Of a DNA stretch of 28,411 bases, positions 3,695-27,757 are shown piece after piece. The notes beneath the pieces are model-generated. The model did not search any database and was not told the DNA's origin. It saw only the letters and a program-made list of their open reading frames with translations. The stretch lies in UHGV virus genome UHGV-0191955. One strand, 5' to 3'. Position 1 is the stretch's first letter. Each line of letters begins with the position of its first letter. Source of the stretch: a virus. The translations under genes and the position numbers were made by a program.

Positions 3695-4171
3695 ATGAAA
3701 GGTCGCAAGAAAATACCTGACGAATTGAAATCCTTACGGGGTACGGCCCAGCCGTGTCGGATGACCGGCGGTGCTGTTTCTACCGGAACCGCTGTCGCGG
3801 CATTGCCGCGCTCCGGACTGAAAGGTACGGCGAAGAAGGTGTTCGAGGTTGTGGCGACGGAGTTGATCCACAAATGCCTGCTCGACGTCGTCGGCGTGGA
3901 CTTAGTCGTCGCCTACGCTCGCGAGATGGGACTGTACCACGACATGATGCGCGAAACCGAAAAGGAGGGATACACCATCGAAGTAATGACGAAACATGGC
4001 TCGGCGACGGTCGTCAACCCCAAGCGCAAGGTCGCGGAATCGGCACTCGCCAATGCCAAGGCGCTGGCGGCCGAGTTCGGATTGACGCCTGCCAGTCGCA
4101 GCCGCGTGGCGGCTTTGCTTTCGGATAATACCCCGAAAGACGACTTCGCCGAGTTCGAGGAGATAAAGTAG
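3695..4171 (+). CDS. phage terminase small subunit (P27-like)
   Basis: 158-aa protein immediately upstream of the terminase large subunit. C-terminal 'AAEFGLTPASRSRVAALL' resembles the P27-family small subunit. Confidence 0.7.
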   Translation: MKGRKKIPDELKSLRGTAQPCRMTGGAVSTGTAVAALPRSGLKGTAKKVFEVVATELIHKCLLDVVGVDLVVAYAREMGLYHDMMRETEKEGYTIEVMTKHGSATVVNPKRKVAESALANAKALAAEFGLTPASRSRVAALLSDNTPKDDFAEFEEIK

Positions 4172-9747: not shown

Positions 9748-9766
9748 CCGAAATTTCCATATCTTT

Positions 9767-10405: not shown

Positions 10406-10409
10406 TATT

Positions 10410-11030
10410 ATGCCATATACTGGAGGACCATTGAATACATTAAATGGGAAAATGGGTATTTCTGCTCCGGAGAATAGTGTACCTGTTATGAAATTAATTC
10501 GCATACATCATCCTAAAAGTAAAGAGGAATTAGTCGAATTAATAAAATGGCATTCTGAAAACAAGTGTGAATGCGGTATTATTAGTAGAGGAACGGTTGA
10601 ACAATTTGGGAAAAATTTATATGAAGCTCAAAAAGCATTTTGGGGAGAATATAAATTTTCATTAGCAATATGCATCCAATGGGAATATGATTTATTTGTT
10701 TTACAATCATTAAAAGGTTCTTTGGTTGAAGATGCTGCTATTAGGACTTTAGAGACCCAATTAGAGCCTGAATATGCTTTTTCAGAAGCAACCGGTTATA
10801 TGGATGAAGAATTGCGAATTGATATTATTTGCAAATATAACAATAGCATTATTGCCGGCATTCAGGTCAAACCTTTAACATTTTTAATGATGAGACGAGA
10901 AATTATTACTTATAATGCTATGGCTAATCAAAAATGGGATAAACCTGTATATTATTTATATTATGACGAAAATGAAAATTTCGTAAATATTGAAGAAGTA
11001 AAGTCTCATTTAAAATCATCGATTCTTTAA
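10410..11030 (+). CDS. candidate restriction endonuclease, C-terminal fragment
   Basis: Begins 4 nt after the previous stop. Removing one T from the T5 run fuses both ORFs into a single ~399-aa frame. Its stop overlaps the methyltransferase stop on the opposite strand. Confidence 0.35.
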   Translation: MPYTGGPLNTLNGKMGISAPENSVPVMKLIRIHHPKSKEELVELIKWHSENKCECGIISRGTVEQFGKNLYEAQKAFWGEYKFSLAICIQWEYDLFVLQSLKGSLVEDAAIRTLETQLEPEYAFSEATGYMDEELRIDIICKYNNSIIAGIQVKPLTFLMMRREIITYNAMANQKWDKPVYYLYYDENENFVNIEEVKSHLKSSIL

Positions 11031-12172
11031 AATGTTAATGCAATCTGCGTTCGGGAAGGAATAGAAATAATACGCTTTCTATTCCCTACTTTTATTTCAG
11101 CAGTGACCGGAATAGTGTCCGCATATTCAGCAGTAATCATGTGATTGTTCCCTCTTATTGCAGATAAATAGACGAACCGCATATCTGTTTCTTGTGAAGT
11201 CATGACCGGCATCTGGAGATGCTCGTTGAAATGTTTGATCTCTTTATTTTGCGTTCGTTGCGAAACGAATTCTTTATGTGCTGCTATTCGATTAGCAATA
11301 ACTTCGTTCATTTGGTCAACCGATGATGAATGAATATTATCGGCTATAATATCTATAAACTTATCATCAATTTCATAACCAATACTATTGCGATTGCTCA
11401 TGATAGATGCAATCGTAGTTGTACCGGTTCCTAAAAAAGGATCCATTACCGTATCTCCTTGCAACGAATACATATTGATTAGACGGTATGGAACTTCCAA
11501 TGGATAGGCTGCACTCCTGTCTCGACTTTCTGCTGATATTTTTTGTTTGGTACCTTTTATATTGTCCCACAAATCGGAAAACCACACATTGCGTTCCTCC
11601 CAAAAGAACGAACTCTCACGGCGTTTCTGTTTGTCTATTGCAGATTTGAATTCGCGTTTACCTCCTTTGCGAAAAATCAAAATCCATTCGTGTTCCAATG
11701 TTACATATGCTCCTGCAGGAAGCATTCCGGACCCCATAAATTTATTTGGAGCATTCGTTTGCTTCCTCCAAATAATGTTTGGAAGATTTACATACCCGTG
11801 AGCGGTGAAATAGTTAATTATACGGGAATGATTGGAGTATAAAGCAAAATTGCCATTGAATGTTCGCGTCGCATCACCGACATTGATACAGACGATTCCA
11901 CCCGGGACAAGGACACGTGTCACCTCATCCCATACTTTATCCAGCTCTTGATGCATTAATTCAAAAGCCGCATCCGGCTGGTTTTCATCAAGGGCATTTG
12001 CAATACAAGGATTTTGTTTGCTTAATATCTCATCCCACATTTGAATCATGGGATATGGCGGAGATGTAACGACTAACTCGACCGAGTTGTCATTAATTTC
12101 TTTCATCTGTTGGGCAGCCCCAGTATATATGCTATGCGTTGTCTTCATAATTTCAAAGCAAAGATAATTCAT
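11027..12172 (-). CDS. DNA methyltransferase, beta-class N4-cytosine/N6-adenine type
   Basis: Motif IV 'VVTSPPYP' near the N-terminus and AdoMet-binding motif I 'VMDPFLGTGTT' near the C-terminus, the circular permutation typical of beta-class amino-methyltransferases. AT-rich. Alternative ATG at 12148. Confidence 0.88.
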   Translation of the reverse strand: MNYLCFEIMKTTHSIYTGAAQQMKEINDNSVELVVTSPPYPMIQMWDEILSKQNPCIANALDENQPDAAFELMHQELDKVWDEVTRVLVPGGIVCINVGDATRTFNGNFALYSNHSRIINYFTAHGYVNLPNIIWRKQTNAPNKFMGSGMLPAGAYVTLEHEWILIFRKGGKREFKSAIDKQKRRESSFFWEERNVWFSDLWDNIKGTKQKISAESRDRSAAYPLEVPYRLINMYSLQGDTVMDPFLGTGTTTIASIMSNRNSIGYEIDDKFIDIIADNIHSSSVDQMNEVIANRIAAHKEFVSQRTQNKEIKHFNEHLQMPVMTSQETDMRFVYLSAIRGNNHMITAEYADTIPVTAEIKVGNRKRIISIPSRTQIALTF

Positions 12173-12284
12173 TTCCTCCTATAATCCTCCATTATTCAAC
12201 TTTATTCTAAAATTGCGACAAAGTTTCCTTTTAGAGGCTGTTCGGTGGATTAAGTTTGCTCCCGAAGAATCAATAACGAGATTT

Positions 12285-13484
12285 ATGAGCAAACTGAAAA
12301 CCCTTAAAGAGAGCCGTGCTGCCGTGTTCGCAAAGATCGACGAGTTGCGTACCGCGACCGACGGTCGCGAGATGACCTCCGAGGAGCAGGAGAGGTGGAA
12401 CACGCTGCTTGCGGAGTACGAGCAGGCCGACCGAGCTGTCGAAGCCGAGGAGCGCTACGTCGATATCGAGCGCCGGCAAGCCGAGCAGCAGTATGTTCGA
12501 CAGACTTCCGGCGAGCAGCCCGACGAACGTCGTGCCGAGGAGTACCGCACCGCTTTCCGCGACTACCTGCTGCGCGGCGCAGCGGATATTTCGCCCGAGC
12601 ACCGGACACTCTTCGAGCAGCGCGCCGGCATCACGGGTTTGTCGGGCGGCGTGATCGTCCCTTCGTCGCTGGCCGACAGCATCGAGGTTGCGCTGAAAGC
12701 CTACGGCGGGATGTTCGAGGCGGGTTCCATTCTCACCACGAGTAAGGGCGGCGACCTGATTATGCCGACGGTAAACGATACCGATGCGAGGGCTACGGTC
12801 GTTGCCGAATACCAGCAGTCGACCAAGTCCGCACCGTCGTTCGGCTCCGAAACGCTCAAAGCCTATACCTACCGCACGCCCATCGTTCCCGTGTCGTTGG
12901 AGCTGTTGCAGGACTCGGCATTCGACCTCGAATCGCTGCTCTCGGGTCTGCTGGCCGAGTCGTTCGGACGGGGCATCAACTACGACCTTACGCGCGGCGA
13001 CGGCAAGGGCAAACCCAAGGGCATCGTCGAGTGGGCGCACGCCTGTGCTACTAACCCCTCTGCTGCAGGCATCTCGCTCGATGCTCTGATCGAGCTCGTC
13101 AAGGGCGTGGATTCCTCCTATGCCCGACACGGGCGGTTCATGTTCAACCGCAATACGCTCTACTCGCTCGTCAAGATCAAGGATACGACGGGACGCTACA
13201 TCTGGCAGGAGGGTGCGAAGGACGGCACGCCGCCGACCTTGTTCGGCAAGGCGTATATCCTGAACGACGACCTCGACGATGCCGCAGCGGGCAAGACTTC
13301 GGTGTTGTTCGGCGACTTCTCGAAGTTCAAGATCCGTATGGTCCGATCGTTCCGCGTGATCCGCCTGAACGAGCTGCTCGCCGAGTACCTTTCGATCGGG
13401 CTGTTCGGCTTCGCCCGCACGGACGGCATCCTGTTGGACGCCGGTACGCACCCCGTCCATAAGTTGGTGCATAAATCGGTGTAA
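12285..13484 (+). CDS. major capsid protein (HK97 fold) with N-terminal coiled-coil delta domain
   Basis: ATG at 12285 preferred over the TTG at 12213. N-terminal charged coiled-coil 'EEQERWNTLLAEYEQADRAVEAEERY', then a capsid-like body. Position after the protease. Confidence 0.8.
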   Translation: MSKLKTLKESRAAVFAKIDELRTATDGREMTSEEQERWNTLLAEYEQADRAVEAEERYVDIERRQAEQQYVRQTSGEQPDERRAEEYRTAFRDYLLRGAADISPEHRTLFEQRAGITGLSGGVIVPSSLADSIEVALKAYGGMFEAGSILTTSKGGDLIMPTVNDTDARATVVAEYQQSTKSAPSFGSETLKAYTYRTPIVPVSLELLQDSAFDLESLLSGLLAESFGRGINYDLTRGDGKGKPKGIVEWAHACATNPSAAGISLDALIELVKGVDSSYARHGRFMFNRNTLYSLVKIKDTTGRYIWQEGAKDGTPPTLFGKAYILNDDLDDAAAGKTSVLFGDFSKFKIRMVRSFRVIRLNELLAEYLSIGLFGFARTDGILLDAGTHPVHKLVHKSV

Positions 13485-13487: not shown

Positions 13488-14024
13488 ATGACGGTAATCG
13501 AGATGCGGGAGCCGCCGATCGCGCTGGAACTCGCCAAGCAGCACCTGCGGGTAGGCAGCGCCGCCCATGACGATACTTTGATCGCTGCGAAACTCGACAT
13601 GGCCGTTGCCGTGGCGGAGGATATGACCGGACGGATCATTCGGGAGAAGAGGGTACGGTTCGACGTACCGATCCCTTCCGACGCTCCCATCGTCCGTCTG
13701 CCCGTCCCTACGACGTGCATCGAGCGGCTCTCCGTCTCTCGAACCATCATTCCCGAATCCGACTACACGCTCTTGAAGGACGACTACGACCCGATGCTGA
13801 TTGCCGAACCGCAGTACAGCGGACAGCCCGCAACGGTTACGGCCGTCGTCGGCTACGATCGCGATAATATACCTCCGGCAATCAAGGCGGCTATTCTCTT
13901 GATCTTGGGCACGCTCTACGACAACGAATCGGACAACCTCGTCGGCCGCTCCGTCTCGGAGCTGTCGCTTACGGCCGAGAAACTCCTGCTTCCGTGGCGG
14001 GTAACCCCTTACGGCGATGTTTGA
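13488..14024 (+). CDS. head-tail connector (gp6-like) protein
   Basis: N-terminal 'LELAKQHLRVGSAAHDDTLIAAKLDMAVAVAEDMTGR' is characteristic of gp6-like head-tail connector proteins. Directly downstream of the capsid gene. Confidence 0.75.
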   Translation: MTVIEMREPPIALELAKQHLRVGSAAHDDTLIAAKLDMAVAVAEDMTGRIIREKRVRFDVPIPSDAPIVRLPVPTTCIERLSVSRTIIPESDYTLLKDDYDPMLIAEPQYSGQPATVTAVVGYDRDNIPPAIKAAILLILGTLYDNESDNLVGRSVSELSLTAEKLLLPWRVTPYGDV

Positions 14025-14334
14025 CACGCGAATCGAAATTCTCGAATACACCGAGGAGCGGGACGAGTACAACGACCTCACGAAAACGCTCCGGCGCGTC
14101 GCCGTCTGCTACGCCCAGCGTACCGAGAACGGCGGTCGGGAGAACCTCTACGCTGGACGCATCGCCCACGAGAACGAAACGGTCTATACGATCCGTTGGC
14201 AACCCGACCTGCGTCCCGATATGGTCGTTCGCGACGAGGGGTATCTGCGGAAGATAATTTCGATCCACGAGGATGGACGCCGATGGCGCCTGCACCTCAA
14301 ATGCCGGAAGAGCGATGCTGACGATCGAGGTTGA
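14017..14334 (+). CDS. head closure / head-tail joining protein
   Basis: 105 aa, overlaps the previous gene by 8 nt. 'TIRWQPDLRPDMVVRDEGYLRKIISIHEDGRRWRLHL' resembles the head-tail joining family. Confidence 0.65.
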   Translation: MFDTRIEILEYTEERDEYNDLTKTLRRVAVCYAQRTENGGRENLYAGRIAHENETVYTIRWQPDLRPDMVVRDEGYLRKIISIHEDGRRWRLHLKCRKSDADDRG

Positions 14335-14839
14335 AGATTATGCCGCAGCCAAGCGGATTCTGGACGAACTGCCGAACACGATGCAGAAGCGGATGCTGCT
14401 TGTAGCTCTGCGCGCTTCGGCCAAACCGATGTTGCAATCGGCACGGAGCAAAGTCCCCGTCCGCACGGGCAAGCTGAAGAAGCAGCTGCGCACGGTGCGC
14501 TACAAGGACCGCAACGCTTCGAAGTCGGAGGTGGCCATCGCCGTGAAGCCGGTCTTCGAACGCACGAAGAAAAAAGGCGTCGTAAACGAATACTACGGCA
14601 AGTTCATCCACGAGGGAACTGCCGACCCTCGCACCTCGAAAAAGGGCAAACTGCTGGTATTCGACGATGCGCAGGGCAAAAAGGTCTTCGTCCGCAACGT
14701 CAGGGGCATCCGGCCGACACCTTATTTGGAGCAGGCTTATACGGAAAACTCCGAACGCACGGCGACGATCTTCGGCGACGAGTTGGCTGCGGCAGTCGAG
14801 AAGTTCGTGAATAAAAACTTCGCACCGGTATCGAAATGA
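14315..14839 (+). CDS. HK97 gp10-like tail component
   Basis: ATG at 14315 inside the longer ORF. 'VPVRTGKLKKQL' is typical of the gp10 family. Stop overlaps the next start. Confidence 0.6.
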   Translation: MLTIEVEDYAAAKRILDELPNTMQKRMLLVALRASAKPMLQSARSKVPVRTGKLKKQLRTVRYKDRNASKSEVAIAVKPVFERTKKKGVVNEYYGKFIHEGTADPRTSKKGKLLVFDDAQGKKVFVRNVRGIRPTPYLEQAYTENSERTATIFGDELAAAVEKFVNKNFAPVSK

Positions 14840-15192
14840 CGGATTTCAAGAAGCAGCTGATCGTGCTTTTGGAGCGTGAGATTCCAGAATTGGCGGATAG
14901 GATCCAAGCCGGGGCGGTCGATGCCCGGACGCCTGCGCCTTTCGCCGCGTTCTCCGTTCCGGAGGAGACGCCCGTAAGGACGTTGCACGGCATCGCCGGC
15001 TACCGGACGATGTTCGAGGTCGCGGTCTACGACAGCAAGTTCTCCGGTGCGGAACACCTCAAGCGTCGGGCGATCGCCGCCTTGGAGGGTGCGGAGTTCG
15101 ACGGCAAACGCAGCCGCTTCGTCTCTTCGGCGACGGAATACTACGCGGACTACGACCTGCACGGTGCGACGATGTCATTCAGAATCATATAA
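14836..15192 (+). CDS. hypothetical tail-completion protein
   Basis: 118-aa ORF in the conserved slot between gp10-like and tail tube genes. Function by position only. Confidence 0.45.
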   Translation: MTDFKKQLIVLLEREIPELADRIQAGAVDARTPAPFAAFSVPEETPVRTLHGIAGYRTMFEVAVYDSKFSGAEHLKRRAIAALEGAEFDGKRSRFVSSATEYYADYDLHGATMSFRII

Positions 15193-15209: not shown

Positions 15210-15650
15210 ATGCCTGAAACTTACGGAAACAAACAGGTCGTCCAAGGCGAGGACATCATCCTCTTGGTGGACGATAAGACGACGCTCCACGCCACGACGC
15301 ACACGCTGAAGGTGGACTTGGAGATGAAGGAGCTGCGCACGAAGGATACCGACGGCAAGGAGAAGTGGCCGGGCGATGTCTCGTGGTCGGTGGACGGCGA
15401 CGGGCTGGTGGTCATCGACGATTCGATCGAGAACAGCCATACCGCCGAGGAGGTTCTCGACCTGGTACTTAGGAAAAAACTCGTCGATGTGGTCGTCAAG
15501 TCGCCGCTCACGGGACTCGCGAAGATGTACACGGGCAAAGCCTACATCACGACCTTTTCGCTCTCGACGCCTGCGGGCGACAACGCCTCTTACAGTTATT
15601 CGCTTACCGGCAGCGGCAACCTGACGCCGGCAGACAAACCTGAATCCTGA
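15210..15650 (+). CDS. putative major tail (tube) protein
   Basis: 146 aa, acidic, beta-rich-looking. Position immediately upstream of the chaperone frameshift pair. Confidence 0.5.
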   Translation: MPETYGNKQVVQGEDIILLVDDKTTLHATTHTLKVDLEMKELRTKDTDGKEKWPGDVSWSVDGDGLVVIDDSIENSHTAEEVLDLVLRKKLVDVVVKSPLTGLAKMYTGKAYITTFSLSTPAGDNASYSYSLTGSGNLTPADKPES

Positions 15651-16842: not shown

Positions 16843-17625
16843 ATGGCAAGATTGAAAACTCCGATTTCATACTATGGCGGCAAGCAGATGCTTTTGAAGC
16901 ATATCCTGCCGCTGATTCCCGAACATACGCTCTACACGGAAGCCTTCTGCGGCGGCTGCGCCGTGCTGTTCGCCAAGCCGCCCGCGCAGTGCGAAGTCAT
17001 CAACGACACGAACACCGAATTGGTGAACTTCTACCGCGTGGCGCAGACCCAGTATGCGGCACTCAAGGCGATGATCGACGCGACGCTCCACAGCCGCGAG
17101 ATACACGCGCACGCACGGCATATCAACGAGCATCCGTCGTTCTTCACGCCCGTCGAGCGGGCTTGGGCTGTATGGGTCTGCACGAAGTTGGGCTTCGCCT
17201 CGATGATCGACGGAACGTTCGGCTACGACCGCAGCGGTACGACGACGCTGAAACTCCGCAATGCGAAAGAGGCCTTCACCGAGGAGTTGTGCGGACGCCT
17301 CGGCCGCGTTACGGTCGAGTGCGAGGACGGCATCGATGTCATCCGCCGCTACGACTGTCCCGAGGCGTTCCACTTCGTCGATCCGCCCTATGTCGGCAGC
17401 GACTGCGGACACTACAACGGTACGTTCGACGAGGAGGATTTTTCGAGGCTGCTCGACACGCTTGCAACGGTCGAAGGGAAGTTCATGCTCACGATGTTTC
17501 CGCACGAGAAGATCGAACGCCTCGCCGCCCGGCACGGCTGGACGATCCATCGGCTCGACCGCACCATCACCGCCTCGAAAGTTTCCCGCCGCCGGCAGGA
17601 GGAGTGGATTACGACGAACTACTGA
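16843..17625 (+). CDS. Dam-like N6-adenine DNA methyltransferase (D12 class)
   Basis: 'ISYYGGK' N-terminal motif, 'EAFCGGCAV' AdoMet motif and catalytic 'DPPY' in 'FVDPPYVGS'. No adjacent nuclease. Confidence 0.85.
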   Translation: MARLKTPISYYGGKQMLLKHILPLIPEHTLYTEAFCGGCAVLFAKPPAQCEVINDTNTELVNFYRVAQTQYAALKAMIDATLHSREIHAHARHINEHPSFFTPVERAWAVWVCTKLGFASMIDGTFGYDRSGTTTLKLRNAKEAFTEELCGRLGRVTVECEDGIDVIRRYDCPEAFHFVDPPYVGSDCGHYNGTFDEEDFSRLLDTLATVEGKFMLTMFPHEKIERLAARHGWTIHRLDRTITASKVSRRRQEEWITTNY

Positions 17626-17632
17626 TACCGAC

Positions 17633-18408
17633 GTGGGTACATTCGCTTACGATAACCCCGCTTACATCGCTTCGTGCTCGTTCGGCAAGGATTCGATCGC
17701 TACGATCCTCCTTGCCCTCGAATATGGCGAGCCGCTCGATGCCGCTGTCTTTTCGGAGGTGATGTTCGACCATCGGCGCAATATCAGCGGCGAGATGCCC
17801 GAACACATCGAGTGGATCTATTCGACGGCGATTCCGCGTCTTGCCGCCTTGGGCGTACGGGTCGATGTCGTCCGTTCGGAGAAAGACTATCTTACGTTAT
17901 TCCATACGGTCATAGGGAGCAGTACGCATAAGGGTATGCTGCGCGGCTGGCTCATCGGCGGCAAGTGCTGCGCCAATCGCGACCTCAAAATCCGGCCTAT
18001 ACATCGCTATTATGCCCGTTATCGAGAGCAAGGCATCGTGCAGTACGTCGGCATCGCGGCCGACGAACCGAGACGCCTCGCGCGGATGCAGGAAAAGGGT
18101 ATAACCGTAAAACGAGTCTGCTCGCCAAGTACGGGTACACCGAGGCGGACGCCCGACGCAAGTGCGAAGAATACGGTCTGCTGTCGCCTCTCTACCGCAC
18201 CTCGCATCGGGGCGGTTGCTGGTTCTGCCCCAACTGTCGCATTCCGGTCTTCGCCGAACTGCGCCGCCGCCATCCTGAATTGTGGCGTGAACTGCAACTG
18301 CTCTCGAAGGTCGGAAATAAGTCCTCCGAAGGTTTCAAATACGGGCTGACTTTCGAGGAGGTCGAGCGGCGGATGGATCTCTTCGAACACTCACCGACGC
18401 CATTCTAA
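17633..18408 (+). pseudogene. PAPS-reductase-like (PP-loop) protein, frameshifted
   Basis: N-terminal part in one frame carries PP-loop-like 'CSFGKDS' and 'GIAADEPRRLARM'. C-terminal part in the -1 frame carries 'HRGGCWFCPNC'. The frame switch falls near 18092-18115 in an A4/G3 run. Start assigned to the GTG at 17633. Confidence 0.55.
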
Positions 18409-18410
18409 AC

Positions 18411-18509
18411 AACTGAAAATAAATACGATAATAGTCGCCGAATAACTTGCGTGTTCCGAATAACGATGTTATGTTTGTCATGCAATAAACAACTAAAATA
18501 GAGCGAATT
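18411..18509 (+). promoter_or_regulatory. repeated promoter element, copy A
   Basis: ~100-bp element shared by five loci. TTG at 18447-18449 and TATGTTTG at 18470-18477 with 20-nt spacing. Ends at the ATG of the downstream ORF. Confidence 0.65.
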
Positions 18510-18813
18510 ATGAAAAAGACAGTCATCGTGAAAGGCGAGCGTCGCAAGGTAGAATTCGAGTATCGAGTAATCGATAAATTGGTTAGTTGCCAAAAAGCAA
18601 ACGATGGGATAAGCAGGGGGATGGCTTCCGGTCGAAACCTATTACCACGAAGCCGTTGCCATTATCGACGGTGTAGAATATCCGAGCGTTCGACGCTGGC
18701 ATACCAATGGCGGCAGGTATTCGGAACAGTTCTTTTACAACGGACATTTCTATGATTCGTATAAGAAAATGATCGAGCGCATTCTCGAATCGGCAGACGA
18801 AAGTAACTCTTGA
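18510..18813 (+). CDS. small cassette protein A, apparently frameshifted
   Basis: ORF 18510..18755 reads 'MKKTVIVKGERRKVEFEYRVIDKLV...'. After a G5 run (18616-18620) the +1 frame gives a protein-like 'WLPVETYYHEAVAIIDGVEYPS...ERILESADESNS' to a stop at 18811-18813, while the original frame turns Arg-rich and low-complexity. Confidence 0.45.
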
Positions 18814-18833
18814 ACCTCGATGGAAGCAGATGG

Positions 18834-18863
18834 AAAAACAGGCTCCGTACGGAGCCTGTTTCG
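18834..18863 (+). terminator. perfect palindrome terminator hairpin
   Basis: AAAAACAGGCTCCGT/ACGGAGCCTGTTT: an A-tract, a perfect GC-rich palindrome, then a T-tract, a bidirectional intrinsic-terminator shape, directly after cassette A. Confidence 0.6.
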
Positions 18864-18886
18864 ATCTTTCGCTGTAAGCGTAAATA

Positions 18887-18997
18887 ACTGAAAATAAATA
18901 TGATAATAGTTACCGGATAACTTGTGTGTTCCGAATAACGATGTTATGTTTGCAGTACGATAAACAACTGAATAATAGACGATTAAAACACCCGAAC
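18887..18997 (+). promoter_or_regulatory. repeated promoter element, copy B
   Basis: Same element as copy A with substitutions; contains CTTG...TATGTTTG; followed by ATG at 18998. Confidence 0.65.
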
Positions 18998-19420
18998 ATG
19001 ACAAGTGCACAGGCAAAACAGATCGCATCGAACTATATGCGGCAGCAGAGCGATTATGTATTTTCGGCGGTAACGGTTAAAAGCCTCGCTCCGGCGAACG
19101 GACCAGTCAAGGTGTGGCTCACCACCGAAGACGACTACGGGGACGAACTGATCGTCGAGGTCGAGATGGACCCGCAGTCGAATGAGATCCGCTGGAAGAA
19201 GATCTGCAACACGGGACGCCTATCCGAATATCTGAAGCCGGCTACTCGGATCGATAAACTTTCGGCGGGGCAGCGCTTCCGGCTGCAAGGCGACTGCGTG
19301 GTTTACGAGTTCGTGGACAATGTAAAGGACCGCAGCAATATTCCCTATATCATCCGACGGGCGGACCGATCCGGTTGCGTATCGAGAGTCGGATGGCAGG
19401 AAGTTTTTCCTATCGAGTAA
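18998..19420 (+). CDS. small cassette protein B (140 aa)
   Basis: ATG immediately after promoter copy B. No motif recognised. Confidence 0.55.
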   Translation: MTSAQAKQIASNYMRQQSDYVFSAVTVKSLAPANGPVKVWLTTEDDYGDELIVEVEMDPQSNEIRWKKICNTGRLSEYLKPATRIDKLSAGQRFRLQGDCVVYEFVDNVKDRSNIPYIIRRADRSGCVSRVGWQEVFPIE

Positions 19421-19429
19421 CCGATAACC

Positions 19430-19456
19430 GCGCACCTTGCCGAAAGGCAGGTGCGC
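19430..19456 (+). terminator. stem-loop with GAAA tetraloop
   Basis: GCGCACCTTGCC-GAAA-GGCAGGTGCGC, one bulged T, located after cassette B. Confidence 0.4.
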
Positions 19457-19472
19457 ATAAAACGATACGACG

Positions 19473-19703
19473 ATGAAACTCCGCCGAACGAAAACCGGAA
19501 CTTACACGATTGCTGGTATTACCGCAACTCAATATCGCACCCTTGCGGCAGTGCTTATGACCGCCGATGAGCGTTGCTTCGACGAACAGGACGAGGACGG
19601 CAACTATTACAGCAACGACGATTTCGTCTGCTCGCTCGATGGCGATGAACGGGTGGCTTTGCGACAGGTGTGCGACGCACTTCGGCAACGTGTAAAATAT
19701 TGA
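19473..19703 (+). CDS. small acidic protein (76 aa)
   Basis: ATG ORF between cassettes B and C. Not preceded by the repeated promoter element. Confidence 0.45.
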   Translation: MKLRRTKTGTYTIAGITATQYRTLAAVLMTADERCFDEQDEDGNYYSNDDFVCSLDGDERVALRQVCDALRQRVKY

Positions 19704-19796
19704 AAATAAATGCGATAATAATTAATGGAAAACTTGCGTGTCCCGAATTATGATGCCATCTTTGCAGTGCAATAAACAACTAATATAGAGTGTATT
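19698..19796 (+). promoter_or_regulatory. repeated promoter element, copy C
   Basis: TATTGAAAATAAATGCGATAATA...CTTGCGTG...TTTGCAGTGCAATAAACAACTAATAT. The -7 box is degenerate here (TCTTTG). Confidence 0.55.
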
Positions 19797-20126
19797 ATGA
19801 GTACAAGAGCAAGAATCGGAGTAAGACTTCCAGACGGAAAAATCAAAAGCGTCCATATATGGCGGGACGGACATCCCGATACGTTGGGCGAAACGTTGTC
19901 AGCGCACTACAATACATTGGAATCGGCAATGGCACTGGTCGAACGAGGCAATATAATCGATGTGGAAGCGCGTCTCGAAGAGTGCCGGTTCGAGAAATCG
20001 AATGAACGGTACGATACCGAGCCTCGGGTTTATAAAACGGTTGCCGCCTACGAACGAGAAATCGGAGGAGGATATATGTTACAAATATCTCTATCGGGAC
20101 GGCAAGTGGGAATACCGGGCGGTTGA
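19797..20126 (+). CDS. small cassette protein C (109 aa)
   Basis: ATG immediately after promoter copy C. No motif recognised. Confidence 0.55.
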   Translation: MSTRARIGVRLPDGKIKSVHIWRDGHPDTLGETLSAHYNTLESAMALVERGNIIDVEARLEECRFEKSNERYDTEPRVYKTVAAYEREIGGGYMLQISLSGRQVGIPGG

Positions 20127-20202
20127 TTGGTAACCGACTTCCGATCGTAAGGAACGAATGCTCCGAGCCTCCGACGGGAGGCTTCCCCTCGTTTCGTCCA
20201 TT

Positions 20203-20247
20203 CAGTTGTTTATTGCGACCGGAGCCGTGCATCGTGTACGGCTCCGG
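20203..20247 (+). terminator. CAGTTGTTTATTGC box plus 10-bp GC hairpin (CCGGAGCCGT/ACGGCTCCGG), copy 1
   Basis: Perfect stem followed by TTT. The 14-mer is the reverse complement of GCAATAAACAACTG found in the cassette leaders. Confidence 0.5.
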
Positions 20248-20321
20248 TTTCCGTTCAAAGGCGGGACATTGTTTCTGCAACGGATCTTCGGCAGCATGTA
20301 TATTTACCATATGGAATAGGC

Positions 20322-20440
20322 TTGATAAATAGTTGGTATTCTTTGAATTAAGTTACCGATAAACTTGCGTGTCCCGAATAATGATGTTATGTTTGCAGTG
20401 CAATAAACGATTGAACTGCAATCTATTAAACGACTCGATT
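20322..20440 (+). promoter_or_regulatory. repeated promoter element, copy D
   Basis: 5' half diverged; retains CTTGCGTGTCCCGAATAATGATGTTATGTTTGCAGTGCAATAAACGATTG; followed by ATG at 20441. Confidence 0.6.
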
Positions 20441-20659
20441 ATGAATACTGCGAATCGAAAAAGAACGGAAATCGACGCCGAACTCGACCGGTTGGAGGTC
20501 GAATTCGAGAAGAACCGCAAGGAGATGCAACGCCTTGCCGACGAGAACAGACGTGCCGGCAACCGCTATGGCGAATTATCGAATGCGAATCACGACATCA
20601 ACAACCGGATCCTCACATTGCTCGCAGAGCGTTGGGAATCGGAAGAGACGACCGATTGA
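20441..20659 (+). CDS. small coiled-coil cassette protein D (72 aa)
   Basis: ATG after promoter copy D. Charged, heptad-like sequence 'IDAELDRLEVEFEKNRKEMQRLADENRR'. Confidence 0.5.
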   Translation: MNTANRKRTEIDAELDRLEVEFEKNRKEMQRLADENRRAGNRYGELSNANHDINNRILTLLAERWESEETTD

Positions 20660-20675
20660 CGAAACGAGAGACGGA

Positions 20676-20703
20676 CCCCGCCGAGAAATATTCCTCGGCG
20701 GGG
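20676..20703 (+). terminator. 10-bp perfect stem hairpin (CCCCGCCGAG/CTCGGCGGGG)
   Basis: Read directly; lies after cassette D. Confidence 0.45.
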
Positions 20704-20734
20704 TAAAACCCGAAACCGGAAAACACATAAAGAG

Positions 20735-20926
20735 ATGAAAACGATGAATGCAAAGGTAGGCGACAAGATTCGCATTATCCATCTTCGCGACGAGGACAGC
20801 CGTTACGACGGCAAGGAGGGAACGATCGAGTTCATCGACTCGCTCGGACAACTGCACGGCACATGGGGCGGGTTGGCAGTCATTCCCGAAGTCGATCGGT
20901 TCGTAATTATCGAGAAAGCGGAATAA
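20735..20926 (+). CDS. small protein (63 aa)
   Basis: ATG ORF without the repeated promoter element. Alternative ATG at 20744. Confidence 0.45.
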   Translation: MKTMNAKVGDKIRIIHLRDEDSRYDGKEGTIEFIDSLGQLHGTWGGLAVIPEVDRFVIIEKAE

Positions 20927-20977
20927 TCGCCTGCAACGATAATGCTCGGTTCCGCCATCTTTTTATAGCATCTAATC

Positions 20978-21076
20978 TATTGAAAATAAATACGATAATA
21001 GTCGCCGAACAACTTGCATGTTCCGAATAACGATGTTATGTTTGCAGTACGATAAACAACTAAAAAAGAGCGAATT
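20978..21076 (+). promoter_or_regulatory. repeated promoter element, copy E
   Basis: Closest copy to A. Contains CTTGCATG...TATGTTTG; followed by ATG at 21077. Confidence 0.65.
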
Positions 21077-21364
21077 ATGAGAACGAACATCGAACGGTTT
21101 TTAGAGAGATTCCCGAAGAATGCCACGAATTGGGCGCAGGCGACGGACGAGGTGCGCGATATGGCTCACAAGGCTCGCGAATTGTTGGAAGAGTACGAAG
21201 GCGTAATCGTCGAACCGGTAAATTTCCGGACTATCGAGACCCCGGCCGAGTGGAATACCGAAGGTCGCGAGTTCATCCTGACGAATTTCGATCGCATGGC
21301 GGATAGGACCAAAGAGCGTTTCTACGACTACTTCCGCGAGTGGTTCGAAGGCGAAGAGGAATAG
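21077..21364 (+). CDS. small acidic cassette protein E (95 aa)
   Basis: ATG immediately after promoter copy E. No motif recognised. Confidence 0.55.
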   Translation: MRTNIERFLERFPKNATNWAQATDEVRDMAHKARELLEEYEGVIVEPVNFRTIETPAEWNTEGREFILTNFDRMADRTKERFYDYFREWFEGEEE

Positions 21365-21372
21365 ACCGACGC

Positions 21373-21409
21373 ACGGATGCTCCCCGTTCAAGCTGCGGGG
21401 AGCATCCGT
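21373..21409 (+). terminator. 14-bp perfect stem hairpin (ACGGATGCTCCCCG/CGGGGAGCATCCGT)
   Basis: Read directly; 9-nt loop; directly after cassette E. Confidence 0.5.
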
Positions 21410-21471
21410 CCTAACCCCGGAGTAGGGTTGCACACGTCGTCTCTTTCGATAGGAAATCTATCGTGCTCCAT

Positions 21472-21515
21472 CAGTTGTTTATTGCAGCCGGAGCCGCATC
21501 ATGTGCGGCTCCGGC
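21472..21515 (+). terminator. CAGTTGTTTATTGC box plus 12-bp GC hairpin (GCCGGAGCCGCA/TGCGGCTCCGGC), copy 2
   Basis: Second copy of the element at 20203-20247, with the same 14-mer and a related stem. Confidence 0.5.
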
Positions 21516-21589
21516 AATCTCATTATAGAGGGACTTTGTTTCAGCGATGAGGCCTTTTGCCATTTTACCTTTATTCCCGCGACAAAGGT

Positions 21590-24454
21590 ATGGCGATTTT
21601 TGGTCTGAAATATTACGCAGACCTTCGCTCGAAGTACAAGGGCGTCTTGTGGCGCGTAGAGATTTCGGAGCGGGGGTACGCAGGTCCGTCGGAGGAGATG
21701 ACCTTCGACGGCGGTGCACCGTTGCAGATCACGTGGGAGAAACGGGGCGACGAGTTCTACGTGCCGGTCAAGGCTTCGGAGGCGACCATCAACATCCTCT
21801 GCAAGGAGAATTTCCATTACCTGGCTCTGTTCACTTCCGATCCCCGTTATTTTCGCGTCTCGATTTTCCGCAATCGGCAGCTCTATTGGCGGGGCTACGT
21901 CACCTCCGACCTCTACTCCGAGAACTTCACGGCTCCGCCTTATACCGTCACGATCAAGGCCGTGGACGGCTTCAATCTCTTGTCGAGCATTCCGTTCCGC
22001 GACCTCTTACATATCGGCATCGCGGGCAGACGATCGCTGTGGGAACTGCTCTCCTCCTGCATCGACCTGTTGGAGTTGGACCTCGATACGGCGGACTGGA
22101 TGGATCTGTATGCCGAAGGGATGGACGAGAACGCCTCTCCGCTTCGTCAAACCTATATCGACCTCGAACGGCTCTACTACGTCTACGAGCAGCCTACCTA
22201 TCGCGACATCCTCGAACTGTGCCTGCGTCCGTTCGCCGGGCAAATCTTCCAGTCGAACGGAGCCCTGCATATCCGCCGCGCCGTGTCGCTCTACCGAACT
22301 GCCCGTCCCGTGAATTTCTACCGCGTCGGCACGGAGTATCCCGTCGGACGGATCGTTACGGGCAGCGGGCTGCGGCTCGTGATCCATACCGGTGCGCAGG
22401 TCGTCGCGTCGGCGGCACGCGAGCGCATCGACGGTATGTGGACGGGCGACCTGCACATCGAGGGAAGTTCGACGCTCGACATCGTCCCTGCGCTGCGCAA
22501 GGTCTCGGTCGATGTAAAGAACAAGAGCCTCGACAACCTGATCGCCCGCATCGGGTTCTACGATCCCGACGCTTGGATGGATCCGCACGGCTTCGTCTCC
22601 GTGAAGAGCGGGGAGGAACTCTATTTCAGCGGCGAGGATGCCTATCGGAGTGAGGAGGTCGTAACTCGGGGGTTTCCCGTCGAGCAGTGCAACTTCCCGC
22701 TCGTATGGGAGTTCGGGTTGCAGACCTACCATCGGGAGTGGGGACTGGGCATTTACCGCCCGAACGAAAGCGTCGATGTCGCGGTGCATTACGGCGTCCG
22801 CATCGTCGGCGAAAAGGCGACATACAGCCTCACCGAGAGCGGCTCGTGGGTGCAGTCTTCCGACGGGGAGATCGCGAGTACGGTCAAGACCGGCAACGAG
22901 CAGAATATGAAGATCGAGATCGACGGCATCCCCTGCGACGGCGAGTGGCGGTTCTTCATCCGGCAGACGCTCATCGGCAAGATCACGACCTATACCGACC
23001 GTTTCGGCAATCCGAGCGGCCGCACCTCGGGCTATCAGGAGAGCGCCGCGTTCCGCAAGATGACGCTCTCGATCGATGCGGGCGACAGCTACGACAAGGG
23101 ATTGCGCTACGAATCGCTCGTCGATCCCGCGAACAATGTCGATATGTCCGTAACGCTTCCCGTGAGCGATATTCCCGCCATTCCGAACGACCGGCTGCTC
23201 TATGCGCTCTACTACCTCGATGTCGCCGGCAATCCCACGCGCATCTGGCATACGAAAGGTCGGAACGACTACGACACGCTGGTCGGTCATATCGTGCAGG
23301 GAGCATTGCGGTACAAGCAGCTGCCGAGCCGGCGCATCACGGGCGAGATCTTCACGGGGCAGCATATCGATATGAATACGGTGGTTCGGGACGACAAGTT
23401 CCTGAACGCCGCCTATTACCTGAACTCCATCGAACTGAATGCCCTCGACGACTCCTACAACAGCGAACTCACGGAGATGCCGCATCTGCTCGCGACGGAG
23501 AGACCGCCGGAGGGCGACGACTGCATAGCGGTCGCAACGCTGTCCTTCACGGTCGGCAAGGCGATCCGCTGCCTGAACCGGCTGCTGCTCCAGTCCGCCG
23601 ATAAAAAGACGGTCTATGCCTTCGACACCGCTACGCGGCAGGTGCGGGAGATCTACCGCAGCACGACGTCCTTCGAGATGTACGAAGCGGACGAGGGATT
23701 CGTCGCGGTGGATGGGAAAGAGGTCCGCTACCTCGACTATCGCGGTACGGTCGAACGGATATATACCCCGCCGGAGGAGTACCGCAACGTCGCGACCTAC
23801 ATGGACGGGTATATCCATATCCTGAAATCTTACCGGCAGTATATCGGTCCGCGGGGCGGCAATGCCGGCGGACGCAGCGCCCGCACGGCAGAGGACGAGG
23901 ATCCGAACTACCGCACCTATCGTTACCTCTCGCGCCCGGAGTGCAAGTACGTTTCGCCCGACGCCTCGACCGGCTATCGCGGACGGGGATATGCCTACGA
24001 GGGTACGCCGATGTCGGGTGCGATCCTCGCCCTGCGGCGCACGGAAAATACGATCGTCGTGAACACCTCGCATGGCGCCTATCTGCACGACAAACGGTTC
24101 CACCAGCCCTGCAAGATGCTGCAATTCGCTGCGGGCGAGCAGATCGTCACCGTCTCCGACAACTATATCGGCATCAACGCCGACGATATGCTGTGGTTCT
24201 ACCGGCGGGATTCGATTACCGAGCGGACGCTGCTCCGGCGGTTGGGACGCTGGGCGGATCATGCCGACCATACGATGAGCGAGGTCGTGCACTCCTACGA
24301 CGACGGCATCTTCATCCGGAACTTCCGCGACGACACGACGACCGACGTTCGGAACGTCGCCGGCTGGGGCGAGACCATCATGGGATTATTCTTCATCTAC
24401 GGCGACCTCTATATCGTGCGCGAACGGGCGATTTACAAATTCATTCCTGAATAA
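21590..24454 (+). CDS. large hypothetical protein (~954 aa), possibly virion-associated
   Basis: Long GC-rich ORF with phage-like codon usage. ATG at 21590 preferred over the TTG at 21557. No motif recognised. The long minus-strand ORF opposite it is treated as antisense noise. Confidence 0.55.
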   Translation: MAIFGLKYYADLRSKYKGVLWRVEISERGYAGPSEEMTFDGGAPLQITWEKRGDEFYVPVKASEATINILCKENFHYLALFTSDPRYFRVSIFRNRQLYWRGYVTSDLYSENFTAPPYTVTIKAVDGFNLLSSIPFRDLLHIGIAGRRSLWELLSSCIDLLELDLDTADWMDLYAEGMDENASPLRQTYIDLERLYYVYEQPTYRDILELCLRPFAGQIFQSNGALHIRRAVSLYRTARPVNFYRVGTEYPVGRIVTGSGLRLVIHTGAQVVASAARERIDGMWTGDLHIEGSSTLDIVPALRKVSVDVKNKSLDNLIARIGFYDPDAWMDPHGFVSVKSGEELYFSGEDAYRSEEVVTRGFPVEQCNFPLVWEFGLQTYHREWGLGIYRPNESVDVAVHYGVRIVGEKATYSLTESGSWVQSSDGEIASTVKTGNEQNMKIEIDGIPCDGEWRFFIRQTLIGKITTYTDRFGNPSGRTSGYQESAAFRKMTLSIDAGDSYDKGLRYESLVDPANNVDMSVTLPVSDIPAIPNDRLLYALYYLDVAGNPTRIWHTKGRNDYDTLVGHIVQGALRYKQLPSRRITGEIFTGQHIDMNTVVRDDKFLNAAYYLNSIELNALDDSYNSELTEMPHLLATERPPEGDDCIAVATLSFTVGKAIRCLNRLLLQSADKKTVYAFDTATRQVREIYRSTTSFEMYEADEGFVAVDGKEVRYLDYRGTVERIYTPPEEYRNVATYMDGYIHILKSYRQYIGPRGGNAGGRSARTAEDEDPNYRTYRYLSRPECKYVSPDASTGYRGRGYAYEGTPMSGAILALRRTENTIVVNTSHGAYLHDKRFHQPCKMLQFAAGEQIVTVSDNYIGINADDMLWFYRRDSITERTLLRRLGRWADHADHTMSEVVHSYDDGIFIRNFRDDTTTDVRNVAGWGETIMGLFFIYGDLYIVRERAIYKFIPE

Positions 24455-25399: not shown

Positions 25400-27757
25400 A
25401 TGTCCCGGAGAATCGCCGATTTACTTATAAAGATCGGAGCCGACTCGTATGAGTTCCAGCAGAAGGCGCAGCAGGTCGAGAAAGGGCTCGGCTCGCTCGA
25501 AAAGAAGCTGACCTCCGTCGGCAAGTCGCTCTCGTTGAAACTCTCCGCGCCCCTTGCGGCATTGGGCGGCGTGTCGCTGCACCTGGCCGATGTGCAGGCC
25601 AAAGCCGAAGCGAAGGTGCAGCAGGCGCTCAAGGTTACGAATCAGGCCGTCGGTTACAACTTCCGGCAGTTGGCCGACTACGCTTCGGAGTTGCAGGGCA
25701 AGACGATTTTCGGCGACGAGACGATCCTCGACAAATCCACCGCCCGCCTGTTGGCTTTTACCAATATCACGGGCGAAAACTTCAAGCGCACGCAGGCGTT
25801 GGCATTGGACCTCGCCACGGCGTTGGAGATGGATTTAGGTTCGGCGTCGTTGCAATTGGGCAAGGCGCTCTCCGATCCCACGACGAAGCTCTCGTCGCTG
25901 TCGCGTGCCGGCATCACCTTCTCCAAGGAGCAGACGGAAGTAATCAAGAAACTCGCCGAGACGGGCGACATAGCCAAGGCACAGGCGATGATCCTCGACG
26001 AATTGGAGCGCAAGTTCGGCGGGCAGGCCGAAGCCGCCGCACGGACGGGACTCGGAGCCGTGCAGCAACTCAAGAATGCGTGGGGCGACTTCCTCGAACG
26101 GATCGGTGCGGCCATCATGCCTTTCGCGACGAAGATAGCAGGTGCGCTCTCGACAGTCGTACAGATGCTGCAATCGATGTCGCCGGCGATGATGCAGACG
26201 ATCGTCGTTGTAGCGGGGCTGGTCGCAGCGGTCGGTCCCCTTTCGCTCGGAATCGGTGCCGTGATCAAGGTGCTGCCGATGCTGGCGGCGGGATTTACGG
26301 CATTGCTGTCGCCCGTCGGGTTGATTATGGCGGCGGTCCTCGCGCTCGGTGCGGCGTTCGCCTATGCCCGCATCCAAAAGCAGAAGATGATCGACGAGAT
26401 GGCCGAGGTCGAATCGCTCGACGAGCTCGAACGCAAGTTGCAGGAGAATATCGCCGAGCAGAAAGAGATCATCGCCACGACGACCAAGACACGGATGGTT
26501 CCGAATTTCGGGGGATTAGTCGCCGGTTTTACTTTGCAGAAAGTACCCGACGAATCGAAACTCGCACCCCTGCGTAAGGAGTACGACCTGCTGACGGCTG
26601 CTATCGAGAAGAAACGCGAAACGGAGAAGAAGGCGGCCGAGGCGCAGGCCGAACTGGACAAGGTAATGGACGAAGCACGCAAGCAGACCGAGGAGTTGAT
26701 GAAGTCCATCGCCGGAACCAACGCGCAGACGGAACAAAGCACGGGCATCATCGGTAAATTGCAGGCGCGGATCGAGGCTCTCGAAAAGAAGAAACTGCTG
26801 CCCGAATCGACCGTCGAGGATATCGCCGCGGCGAACGCCGAGATCGAGAAGCTGCAAAAAGAGCTGGAGCGGATCAGGAATATCAAGCCCGAAGACCTGG
26901 AACCCGTCGTCAAGATGGACGGTATTTTGCCCGAAGGCTTCGAGTTAGAGTTGCCGGCGCCGAAACTCAAAATGGGCGATCTGAAACCCGTAGCATTGCA
27001 ATATGCGCAGCAGATGCAGACGATATTCGGCGCGGTGCGCGAAGGGTTGTACGGCTGGGCGGACGACAACAGCGCATACTTGCAGGAGCACGTCGCCGAT
27101 ACGGTCTCGATGGTTGAGAATTACACGACGGCACTGACGGCGAAGGGCTGGTCGTTCTCGGCAGCATTGGAGCATGTCCACGCCACGATTGCGGAGGTGA
27201 TGACGCGCTTCGATCAGCAGGTGTCGAAGTTTATGGCCGACAGCATCGTCGCAGCGGCGGAGGCTATCGGGCAGATCATTGCCGGCGATTTGGGATTCGG
27301 AGGGCTGATGAAAGCGATCCTGACGCAGTTCGCCTCTTTTCTGAAAAATATCGGCTCGCAACTCATCGAGTTCGGCGTGATGATCATCGCCTTCAAGTCT
27401 GCACTGAAATCCGTCCTCGCCAATCCGTGGGCGGCGATCGCCATCGGAGCAGCGATGGTCGCAGCGGCAACCGTGATGACGGCGCTCATCAACAAGAATG
27501 CGGAGAAGAGTGTGCCGGCATTGGCCAACGGCGGTCTGGCATACGGTCCCACCTATGCGATGGTCGGAGACAACCCCAATGCCGGCACGGATCCCGAAGT
27601 CATCGCACCGCTGTCGAAGTTGCAGGCGATGCTCCCGACGGGTGGCAGCCCGCAGAATCTACGAATAACCCTCGGCGGTCAATTGACTGCCAAGGGTCGG
27701 GACTTGGTGTATGTTCTCGGAAAAGAGAACTTCAAGTCACAGGTGTTGGGTGGATGA
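25400..27757 (+). CDS. tail tape measure protein
   Basis: 785 aa. Ala/Leu/Gln-rich coiled-coil N-terminus, conserved tape-measure core 'LGKALSDPTTKLSSLSRAGITFSKEQTEVIKKLAETGDIAKAQAMILDELERKFGG', central hydrophobic segments, and a Gly/Ala-rich C-terminus. Confidence 0.85.
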   Translation: MSRRIADLLIKIGADSYEFQQKAQQVEKGLGSLEKKLTSVGKSLSLKLSAPLAALGGVSLHLADVQAKAEAKVQQALKVTNQAVGYNFRQLADYASELQGKTIFGDETILDKSTARLLAFTNITGENFKRTQALALDLATALEMDLGSASLQLGKALSDPTTKLSSLSRAGITFSKEQTEVIKKLAETGDIAKAQAMILDELERKFGGQAEAAARTGLGAVQQLKNAWGDFLERIGAAIMPFATKIAGALSTVVQMLQSMSPAMMQTIVVVAGLVAAVGPLSLGIGAVIKVLPMLAAGFTALLSPVGLIMAAVLALGAAFAYARIQKQKMIDEMAEVESLDELERKLQENIAEQKEIIATTTKTRMVPNFGGLVAGFTLQKVPDESKLAPLRKEYDLLTAAIEKKRETEKKAAEAQAELDKVMDEARKQTEELMKSIAGTNAQTEQSTGIIGKLQARIEALEKKKLLPESTVEDIAAANAEIEKLQKELERIRNIKPEDLEPVVKMDGILPEGFELELPAPKLKMGDLKPVALQYAQQMQTIFGAVREGLYGWADDNSAYLQEHVADTVSMVENYTTALTAKGWSFSAALEHVHATIAEVMTRFDQQVSKFMADSIVAAAEAIGQIIAGDLGFGGLMKAILTQFASFLKNIGSQLIEFGVMIIAFKSALKSVLANPWAAIAIGAAMVAAATVMTALINKNAEKSVPALANGGLAYGPTYAMVGDNPNAGTDPEVIAPLSKLQAMLPTGGSPQNLRITLGGQLTAKGRDLVYVLGKENFKSQVLGG

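Follow-up and report, generated by a model that had tools for sequence, protein, structure and literature searches.

The stretch of DNA analyzed here, the virus genome UHGV-0191955 (the window, 28 411 nucleotides in full), contains an array of small genes at 18404-21550 in which an element with the form of a promoter is repeated as five direct copies, all in the same orientation, ahead of seven small genes. We consider it likely that these are independent promoter cassettes forming a moron-like array, and that homologous recombination between the repeats shuffles them. The copies belong to one repeat family, cassettes are present or absent in close relatives with breakpoints that fall within the element, their order varies between loci, the copies evolve in concert, and the proteins that they precede are under purifying selection.

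The putative promoter element

A repeat search of the window returned two families, one of five copies (~101 nt) and one of four copies (116 nt). The copies of the element are 85-116 nt long, 76-89% identical, and spaced roughly regularly, at 475-812 nt. Alignment of the five copies using MAFFT gives a mean column identity of 76% with long invariant runs, copies 1 and 5 being 89% identical over 116 nt, and nhmmer gives per-copy E-values of 1e-27 to 1e-33. An initial annotation, made from the letters alone, had described five near-identical elements, and all three analyses bear this out; the similarity is long in the alignment, and is not a short low-complexity stretch. The start codons that it placed at 18510, 18998, 19797, 20441 and 21077 are correct, as is its pattern of TTG, 20 nt and a -7 box in four copies. 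It had the elements ending 20-35 nt before the ATG, where the start codons in fact lie 15 or 28 nt after ...AAACAACT. The five small-gene cassettes that it counted do have five promoter elements, and these serve seven genes. The copies are as follows.

18404-18509, plus strand: element copy 1; -33 TTG at 18447-18449, -7 box TATGTTTG at 18470-18477, leader ATAAACAACT at 18485-18494
18879-18997, plus strand: element copy 2, of a long-leader subtype; -7 box at 18945-18952
19691-19796, plus strand: element copy 3; variant -7 box CATCTTTG at 19757-19764
20324-20440, plus strand: element copy 4, with a diverged 5′ AT-rich part and a long leader; -7 box at 20388-20395
20962-21076, plus strand: element copy 5; -7 box at 21037-21044

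Every copy has CTTG, then 20 nt, then the -7 box, which is TATGTTTG in copies 1, 2, 4 and 5 and CATCTTTG in copy 3. Upstream of the boxes lies an AT-rich tract, TGAAAATAAAT, and a TAA or TGA in the upstream part is often the stop codon of the gene before; thus the stop of the PAPS reductase gene (18406-18408) is found inside copy 1. Within the spacer there is an internal direct repeat, with CCGAATAAC present twice, 18 nt apart. An A-rich conserved leader without a Shine-Dalgarno sequence extends to the ATG, and its 11-mer RATAAACRAYT is observed seven times where 0.2 are expected.

The published consensus for sigma-ABfr places TTTG at about -33 and TAnnTTTG at -7, and the mRNAs of Bacteroidota are Shine-Dalgarno-less with leaders that are enriched in A (PMC7366714). 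Of the copies in the window, four out of five have the exact TAnnTTTG, and TTG lies 20 nt before it. The element plausibly corresponds to a Bacteroidota -33/-7 promoter of this type, as the initial annotation proposed, and both the fit to the consensus and the assignment of the host to Alistipes, a member of the Bacteroidota, agree with this. Transcription is predicted to start near the G/A of GCAATAAAC. TAnnTTTG boxes also precede other islands of low GC content in the window, at 6160 and 9760.

The elements give no sign of folding as single strands, with z about 0 in four of the five copies, and a scan of 17500-22000 against Rfam gave zero matches, so that they correspond to no known RNA family. 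The leader of cassette 4 (20393-20421) may form a 5′ hairpin of its own, TTGCAGTGCAAT / ATTGAACTGCAA, with z of -2.6 as DNA; one position of the stem is mismatched in relatives.

Hairpins and a second repeated element

Strong hairpins (z -3.3 to -6.0) lie behind five of the seven genes, named here A, 2a, 2b, C, 4a, 4b and 5 in order along the array. A hairpin had been annotated behind each cassette; it is found for A, 2a, C, 4a and 5, and the scan detected none behind 2b or 4b. Cassettes 2 and 4 are therefore each made up of two genes with a hairpin in between. Two of the hairpins, those behind C and at the end of the array, are part of a second repeat of ~88 nt that we term the T-element. Each of its two copies comprises an inverted version of the leader motif, CAGTTGTTTATTGC, followed by a GC hairpin of 12-15 bp and then GGGACWTTGTTTC.

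18836-18861, plus strand: hairpin after gene A, with a U-rich tail; z -3.3
19430-19456, plus strand: hairpin between 2a and 2b, without a U-tract; z -5.1
20197-20284, plus strand: T-element copy 1; inverted leader motif CAGTTGTTTATTGC at 20203-20216, hairpin at 20218-20248 (z -5.0), GGGACATTGTTTC
20675-20704, plus strand: hairpin between 4a and 4b; z -5.6
21373-21409, plus strand: hairpin after gene 5; z -5.9
21465-21550, plus strand: T-element copy 2; inverted leader motif at 21472-21485, hairpin at 21487-21515 (z -6.0)

The inverted motif of the T-element is confined to the clade of the window, where it is kept in all close relatives; it is absent from L005, L017-L020 and more distant arrays. 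It could be the scar of a rearrangement. The T-elements had been missed in the initial annotation, as had the role of the repeats as recombination substrates for the loss and shuffling of cassettes.

Loss, gain and reordering of cassettes

The changes in the array can be followed in near relatives in which the flanks are about 95% identical to the window. Cassette 1 is missing from L001 and L009, the junction here coinciding with the 5′ edge of the element. It is also missing from L010, where the remaining element is a chimera, the 5′ two-thirds resembling copy 1 and the 3′ third resembling copy 2. L006 lacks cassette 3 and has a chimeric element formed from copies 3 and 4, and L004 lacks both cassettes 1 and 3. 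The breakpoints thus differ in position within the repeat, a pattern characteristic of homologous rather than site-specific recombination.

The order of the cassettes also varies, with at least 12 orders among 27 loci, and 1-7 elements in the more distant relatives. The order in the window is A / 2a 2b / C / 4a 4b / 5, that of L017 is 4a F24 4b / F12 / F6 4b / C / 2a 2b / 5 F15 / 4a F16, and that of L005 is 2a / F30 F31 4b / DUF4259 / A / F34 / C F35 / 5 F36.

Conservation and concerted evolution of the element

How general is the element among related phages? About 25 related viral contigs between them yielded 77 distinct copies, arranged in arrays of 1-7; the tape measure proteins of these contigs are 55-100% identical to that of the window. 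The initial annotation had suggested a search of this kind in the host genome and in related phages, and the element is present in both these contigs and the prophages of Alistipes metagenome-assembled genomes (MAGs). The most informative columns across the 77 copies are ACTTG, the GTTCCGAA and GATG of the spacer, AT.TTTG, the ATAAAC..ACT of the leader, and the upstream TAA...TTGAAAATAAA. Between the window and the divergent relative L005 the elements are 60-79% identical, despite saturation of the synonymous sites of neighboring genes (proportion of synonymous differences, pS, 0.66-0.80). The elements are therefore either constrained or homogenized.

The copies of the element undergo concerted evolution, since those within one genome are more alike than copies preceding the same cargo in different genomes. 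Within the window the mean identity is 79%, rising to 88-90% among the copies ahead of A, 2a and 5, while same-cargo copies in different genomes are 60-76% identical. Seven columns of the alignment are diagnostic of lineage.

A fragment of 1348 nt that has been binned as 'Clostridiales bacterium' (L049, JAFLVG010000039.1) has three copies of the element, and is probably a mis-binned piece of a phage from the same group.

The cargo genes

The seven genes of the array are listed below.

18510-18813, plus strand: cargo gene A; intact orthologue of 101 aa in L006 and L008
18998-19420, plus strand: cargo gene 2a; 140 aa
19473-19703, plus strand: cargo gene 2b; 76 aa, without a promoter element of its own
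19797-20133, plus strand: cargo gene C; 110 aa in relatives, phrog_1987
20441-20659, plus strand: cargo gene 4a; 72 aa, coiled-coil-like
20735-20926, plus strand: cargo gene 4b; 63 aa, DUF4314 (E 1.5e-9)
21077-21364, plus strand: cargo gene 5; 95 aa, acidic

The proteins are mutually unrelated, falling into separate families in an all-versus-all blastp comparison, in keeping with the unrelated small proteins of the initial annotation. They are hydrophilic and neutral to acidic, except for protein A which is basic (pI 9.2). The stop codon of gene 2b is a TGA within element 3. The proportion of nonsynonymous differences (pN) is 0.16-0.26 for four cargo families, compared with pS of 0.66-0.80; for gene A relative to L005 the values are 0.16 and 0.71. 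This is the signature of purifying selection, and there is thus coding conservation in homologous phages, for which the initial annotation had asked. With pN so far below pS, the pattern of substitution indicates that the cargo open reading frames are real genes.

Two of the genes are broken in the window. Gene A has two 1-nt deletions, at about 18597 and 18617, and because these break the frame its mechanically called reading frame ends at 18755. In gene C the frame is shifted by one inserted nucleotide, at about 20064. Together with a further change at 18094 in the PAPS reductase gene, these are 1-nt indels relative to all relatives, and reflect either a decaying prophage copy with pseudogenes or errors of assembly.

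No function could be assigned to the cargo from sequence searches of Pfam, PHROGs, NCBIfam, PADLOC and the PDB. The phrog_1987 family of gene C has 838 representatives in a library of 1.84 billion proteins, none annotated, and no relative in Pfam or the PDB, including in a search with a 40-member profile. An AlphaFold2 (AF2) model of the protein of gene 2a (predicted local distance difference test score, pLDDT, 80) has two domains, an alpha+beta domain followed by a beta-barrel, and its only match is a non-significant PepSY-like one (YpmB, E 0.09). That of gene 5 is a helical bundle (pLDDT 88). Neither model gave a Foldseek match at E <= 0.001 in the PDB or BFVD. No likeness of sequence or fold to anti-defense proteins was found, in libraries that were general and none of them dedicated to anti-defense, and nothing relevant was found in the literature on DUF4314 or on repeated promoters in Bacteroides phages.

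The cargo extends beyond this group of phages, since homologues of C and 5 occur in another genus of the Rikenellaceae. In Mucinivorans hirudinis (L056 9365-10482, HG934468.1) they lie side by side, downstream of a D12 methyltransferase gene, in an element that carries an integrase; this locus has a single promoter with any likeness to those of the array, and the likeness is weak. The association of C and 5 with DNA-modification genes is a weak hint of an anti-restriction role, and more generally the cargo would probably serve in host interaction or anti-defense.

How the array may work, and the alternatives

The observations can be drawn together in a model of the array, which is set among the structural genes of a temperate siphophage of Alistipes. 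Each element would be a composite module, beginning with an AT-rich part that often gives the stop codon of the preceding gene, continuing with a putative promoter of the sigma-ABfr type (CTTG, 20 nt, TAnnTTTG), and ending with the conserved spacer and the A-rich, Shine-Dalgarno-less leader up to the start codon. The hairpins at five of the seven genes may work as terminators, attenuators or 3′ stabilizers. Recombination between modules could delete, add and reorder the cassettes and at the same time homogenize the modules; we favor homologous recombination here because the modules are direct repeats that are 75-90% identical. The array would then be a hyperplastic region that samples small accessory genes.

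A number of points weigh against this interpretation. Promoter activity and termination are predicted from matches to consensus sequences. The -33 box is CTTG rather than TTTG, for which reason the strict pattern TTTG-N17-22-TAnnTTTG does not match the elements; copy 3 has CA for TA at -7, and TTAG replaces TTTG in some distant copies. Generic scans for sigma-70 promoters and terminators were uninformative for a host of this phylum. U-tracts are missing from most of the hairpins, and genes 2b and 4b have neither a promoter nor a hairpin. The data on presence and absence do not discriminate loss of a cassette from gain. Lastly, the spacer (GTTCCGAA, GATG) and the leader are conserved as well although a plain sigma-factor promoter needs neither, so that an extra bound factor or recent homogenization has to be invoked.

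This last point leads to another possibility, albeit one that we are inclined to doubt, in which the main role of the element is to serve a dedicated phage regulator (a repressor, activator or RNA-binding protein) as its operator or target, and the five cassettes form a single regulon. The CCGAATAAC repeats of the spacer and the leader ATAAACAACT would be its binding sites, and the sigma boxes would be secondary. The high conservation outside the -33 and -7 boxes across the 77 copies (GTTCCGAA, GATG and ATAAAC..ACT), the internal direct repeat, the leader motif that recurs twice in inverted form, and the presence of a helix-turn-helix (HTH) protein encoded at 1-864 are all consistent with such a regulator. 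Yet none has been identified or tied to the element, which is confined to the array, away from any candidate regulator gene, and its conservation could be explained by concerted evolution instead. A regulator would in any case add a layer to the array of promoter cassettes more than it would replace it. The leader might alternatively act as RNA. Transcripts of cassettes 3 and 5 would pair at their 5′ end with the inverted motif that lies just before the hairpin of the T-element, and the resulting panhandle would stabilize the transcript or control its translation. At both cassettes the two arms are perfectly complementary over 13-14 nt, pairing is predicted with a probability of about 1.0 for transcripts modeled from the inferred start to the hairpin, and the arrangement is retained in all close relatives. 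However, this concerns only two of the five cassettes and the clade of the window, being missing in L005, L017-L020 and the more distant arrays, it depends upon a predicted transcription start, and the inverted motif could have arisen by rearrangement. Covariation cannot be called upon here because both arms are invariant. On balance we regard the panhandle as unlikely.

Two further explanations concern the origin of the array rather than its expression. The elements might be site-specific recombination sites, akin to the attC of integrons or to a miniature mobile element, with the cassettes moved by a recombinase or transposase. The phage does have a tyrosine recombinase (2234-3262), and unrelated cargo in a cassette-like architecture is what such a system would generate. 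But the junction position within the element varies from phage to phage, giving chimeric copies, and the elements have neither terminal inverted repeats nor target duplications; attC sites fold as single strands whereas these do not, and all are direct repeats in a single orientation. Moreover the integrase is 15 kb distant and beside the packaging genes, as expected if it serves for prophage integration. We therefore think a site-specific origin very improbable. No more credible is that the array was left behind by tandem duplication of a single ancestral gene with its promoter, the conserved DNA being a frozen accident with no function today. Direct repeats at roughly regular spacing could be generated in this way, but the cargo proteins have no detectable similarity to each other, the conservation of the elements is far above that of the saturated synonymous sites of their neighbors and holds across phages in which the identity of the tape measure protein is only 55-67%, and the invariant positions are those of the promoter boxes. 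The array of promoter cassettes shuffled by homologous recombination remains the interpretation that we prefer.

Comparison with known systems

The closest analogue of the array is found in the promoter-early stem-loop (PeSL) cassettes of the hyperplastic regions of T4-type myoviruses (Arbiol et al. 2010, PMC2839356; Comeau et al. 2014, PMC4122927). A PeSL comprises upstream stop codons in an AT-rich region, promoter boxes and the start codon of the next gene (PMC2839356), and the anatomy of the two agrees nearly point for point. In both, repeated intergenic modules span the upstream stop codon, AT-rich tract, promoter boxes and next start codon and are placed ahead of small ORFan genes, the indels between close relatives fall in the modules, and recombination between modules shuffles the genes. 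The correspondence fails for the stem-loop within the motif and for the features of a T4-like phage. The stem-loop here is outside the repeated motif, as a separate and non-homologous hairpin 3′ to the cargo. The putative promoter is of the sigma-ABfr -33/-7 type rather than sigma-70 -35/-10, and a Shine-Dalgarno sequence is lacking. The array is single and has 1-7 copies rather than about 50 per genome, in a temperate siphophage of ~36 kb where the PeSL phages are large lytic myoviruses. By analogy, the array may work like PeSL cassettes in a temperate Bacteroidota phage, using sigma-ABfr grammar.

The array also resembles the morons of temperate phages, such as the 'ant moron' of P22-like phages, going by the definition quoted in PMC2629481. 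In both, extra genes lie within a morphogenetic cluster, their content varies among related phages, here with flanks that are ~95% identical, and their base composition is unlike that of the surroundings. In the array, the matches to a promoter consensus and the hairpins would let these genes be expressed independently of the late operon. Classical morons are single units with unrelated promoters, whereas here several units share a homologous promoter module that itself drives the variability.

In the host-takeover module of SPO1, and in other clusters of small early genes with several similar strong promoters, small genes of unknown function are likewise densely packed, each gene or pair of genes being placed behind a similar promoter, putative in the case of the array. 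SPO1 is a lytic Bacillus phage and its module lies in the terminal redundancy, unlike the array described here. Integron gene-cassette arrays share with the present one unrelated small cargo genes, a recurring non-coding element between them, and variable cassette content. However, there is no intI beside the array, the only integrase being 15 kb away; the elements carry a putative promoter, whereas integron cassettes are mostly promoterless; and there is neither attC-like folding nor a fixed breakpoint. The lack of folding and the variable junctions lead us to reject readings of the elements as integron attC sites, as miniature inverted-repeat transposable elements or as single-strand promoters.

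Genome context and host

The window is the genome of a siphophage-type temperate phage, which encodes an integrase and an HK97-like head module as well as major tail and tape measure proteins. It is the reverse complement of positions 8175-36585 of the IMG/VR contig UViG_3300029052_000259, and L002, L003 and L011 are 100% identical to it. The principal features are these.

1-864: HTH protein
1671-2171: HNH endonuclease
2234-3262: tyrosine integrase (tyrosine recombinase)
3695-4171: TerS
4183-5850: TerL
7902-9119: portal
9106-9747: prohead protease
12213-13484: major capsid protein
13488-15192: connector proteins
15210-15650: major tail protein
16843-17625: DNA methyltransferase
about 17646-18408: PAPS reductase
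18404-21550: cassette array
21590-24454: structural protein of 965 aa
24971-25393: lysozyme-like protein
25400-27757: tape measure protein

The initial annotation had placed the array between the genes for the tail chaperone and the tape measure. The tape measure gene is indeed downstream, with two small genes between it and the gene of the 965-aa structural protein; no chaperone was identified, and the upstream neighbors are the methyltransferase and the PAPS reductase. The description as an accessory region is upheld, the array being both variable and lower in GC content than its flanks, at 42-53% (43-53% over 18401-21600) compared with 56-64% in the core genes and 56-63% in the flanking structural genes.

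The pattern of the element is found in prophages on Alistipes MAG contigs of 78-282 kb, which indicates that the host is Alistipes, a member of the Bacteroidota of matching GC content. A blastn search against 50 697 GenBank phage records gave zero matches to the window, and the nearest cultured TerL is only about 42% identical; thus there is no close relative that is annotated or cultured.

A genome-arrangement breakpoint at the end of the array

The hairpin at 21487-21515, that of the second T-element, is a breakpoint of genome arrangement. In one arrangement the tail module, from the 965-aa gene through the tape measure gene to the fibers, comes after the array and shares its strand. In the other, seen in many relatives, similarity to the window is lost at the hairpin (21515-21520), the next gene is that of a Zn-alcohol-dehydrogenase, and the tail module is on the opposite strand; the Alistipes MAG prophages are among those arranged in this way. 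The sets compared were L012, L015, L016, L020-L025, L038, L050 and L052 versus L011, L013, L014, L017-L019 and L027-L039, and the two arrangements are interspersed when the relatives are ranked by the identity of their tape measure protein to that of the window. Inverted repeats flanking the tail module, sought as an explanation of the two arrangements, were not found. Three of the 'type II' contigs begin at an identical nucleotide, and when the start sequence was sought inside contigs all three matches were contig ends.

We may speculate, with due reserve, that temperate phages of gut Bacteroidota have a platform for gene capture that is independent of the integrase. A single conserved module, in which a sigma-ABfr promoter is joined to a spacer that binds a regulator and to a leader able to pair with a matching 3′ motif, would give all captured small genes one program of expression, and would also be the handle for homologous recombination through which co-infecting or resident prophages swap counter-defense genes. 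In addition, the hairpin at 21487-21515 would be a hotspot for changes in the orientation of the whole tail module.

The array would extend the idea of the mobile regulatory cassette from T4-type coliphages to temperate phages of a dominant gut phylum, with a different grammar of transcription and translation. The approximately 77 natural variants of a putative strong Bacteroidota promoter and leader are potential parts for expression. The pan-repertoire of about 15-20 conserved small proteins, of which those in the window are soluble, provides good candidates for screens of phage-host interaction or anti-defense in Alistipes and the rest of the Rikenellaceae, a group almost unexplored in this respect.

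Other variable regions of the window

The low-GC island at 6220-7838 (29-39% GC), in the interval between TerL and portal, contains a two-gene candidate defense system, matching PADLOC PDC-M43 A and B with E of 1e-66 and 3e-109, and is preceded by a TAATTTTG box at 6160. A second low-GC island, at 9827-12172, lies between the prohead protease and major capsid genes. It contains a type II restriction enzyme at 9827-10405 (PADLOC REase_II, E 6e-66) and a DNA methyltransferase on the minus strand at 11027-12172, with a TATCTTTG box before it at 9760, and it looks like a restriction-modification moron within the head module. The gap between the methyltransferase and PAPS reductase genes (17625-17646) is a further variable hotspot among the relatives, with an extra ~1 kb in L001, ~2 kb in L006 and a replacement in L004.

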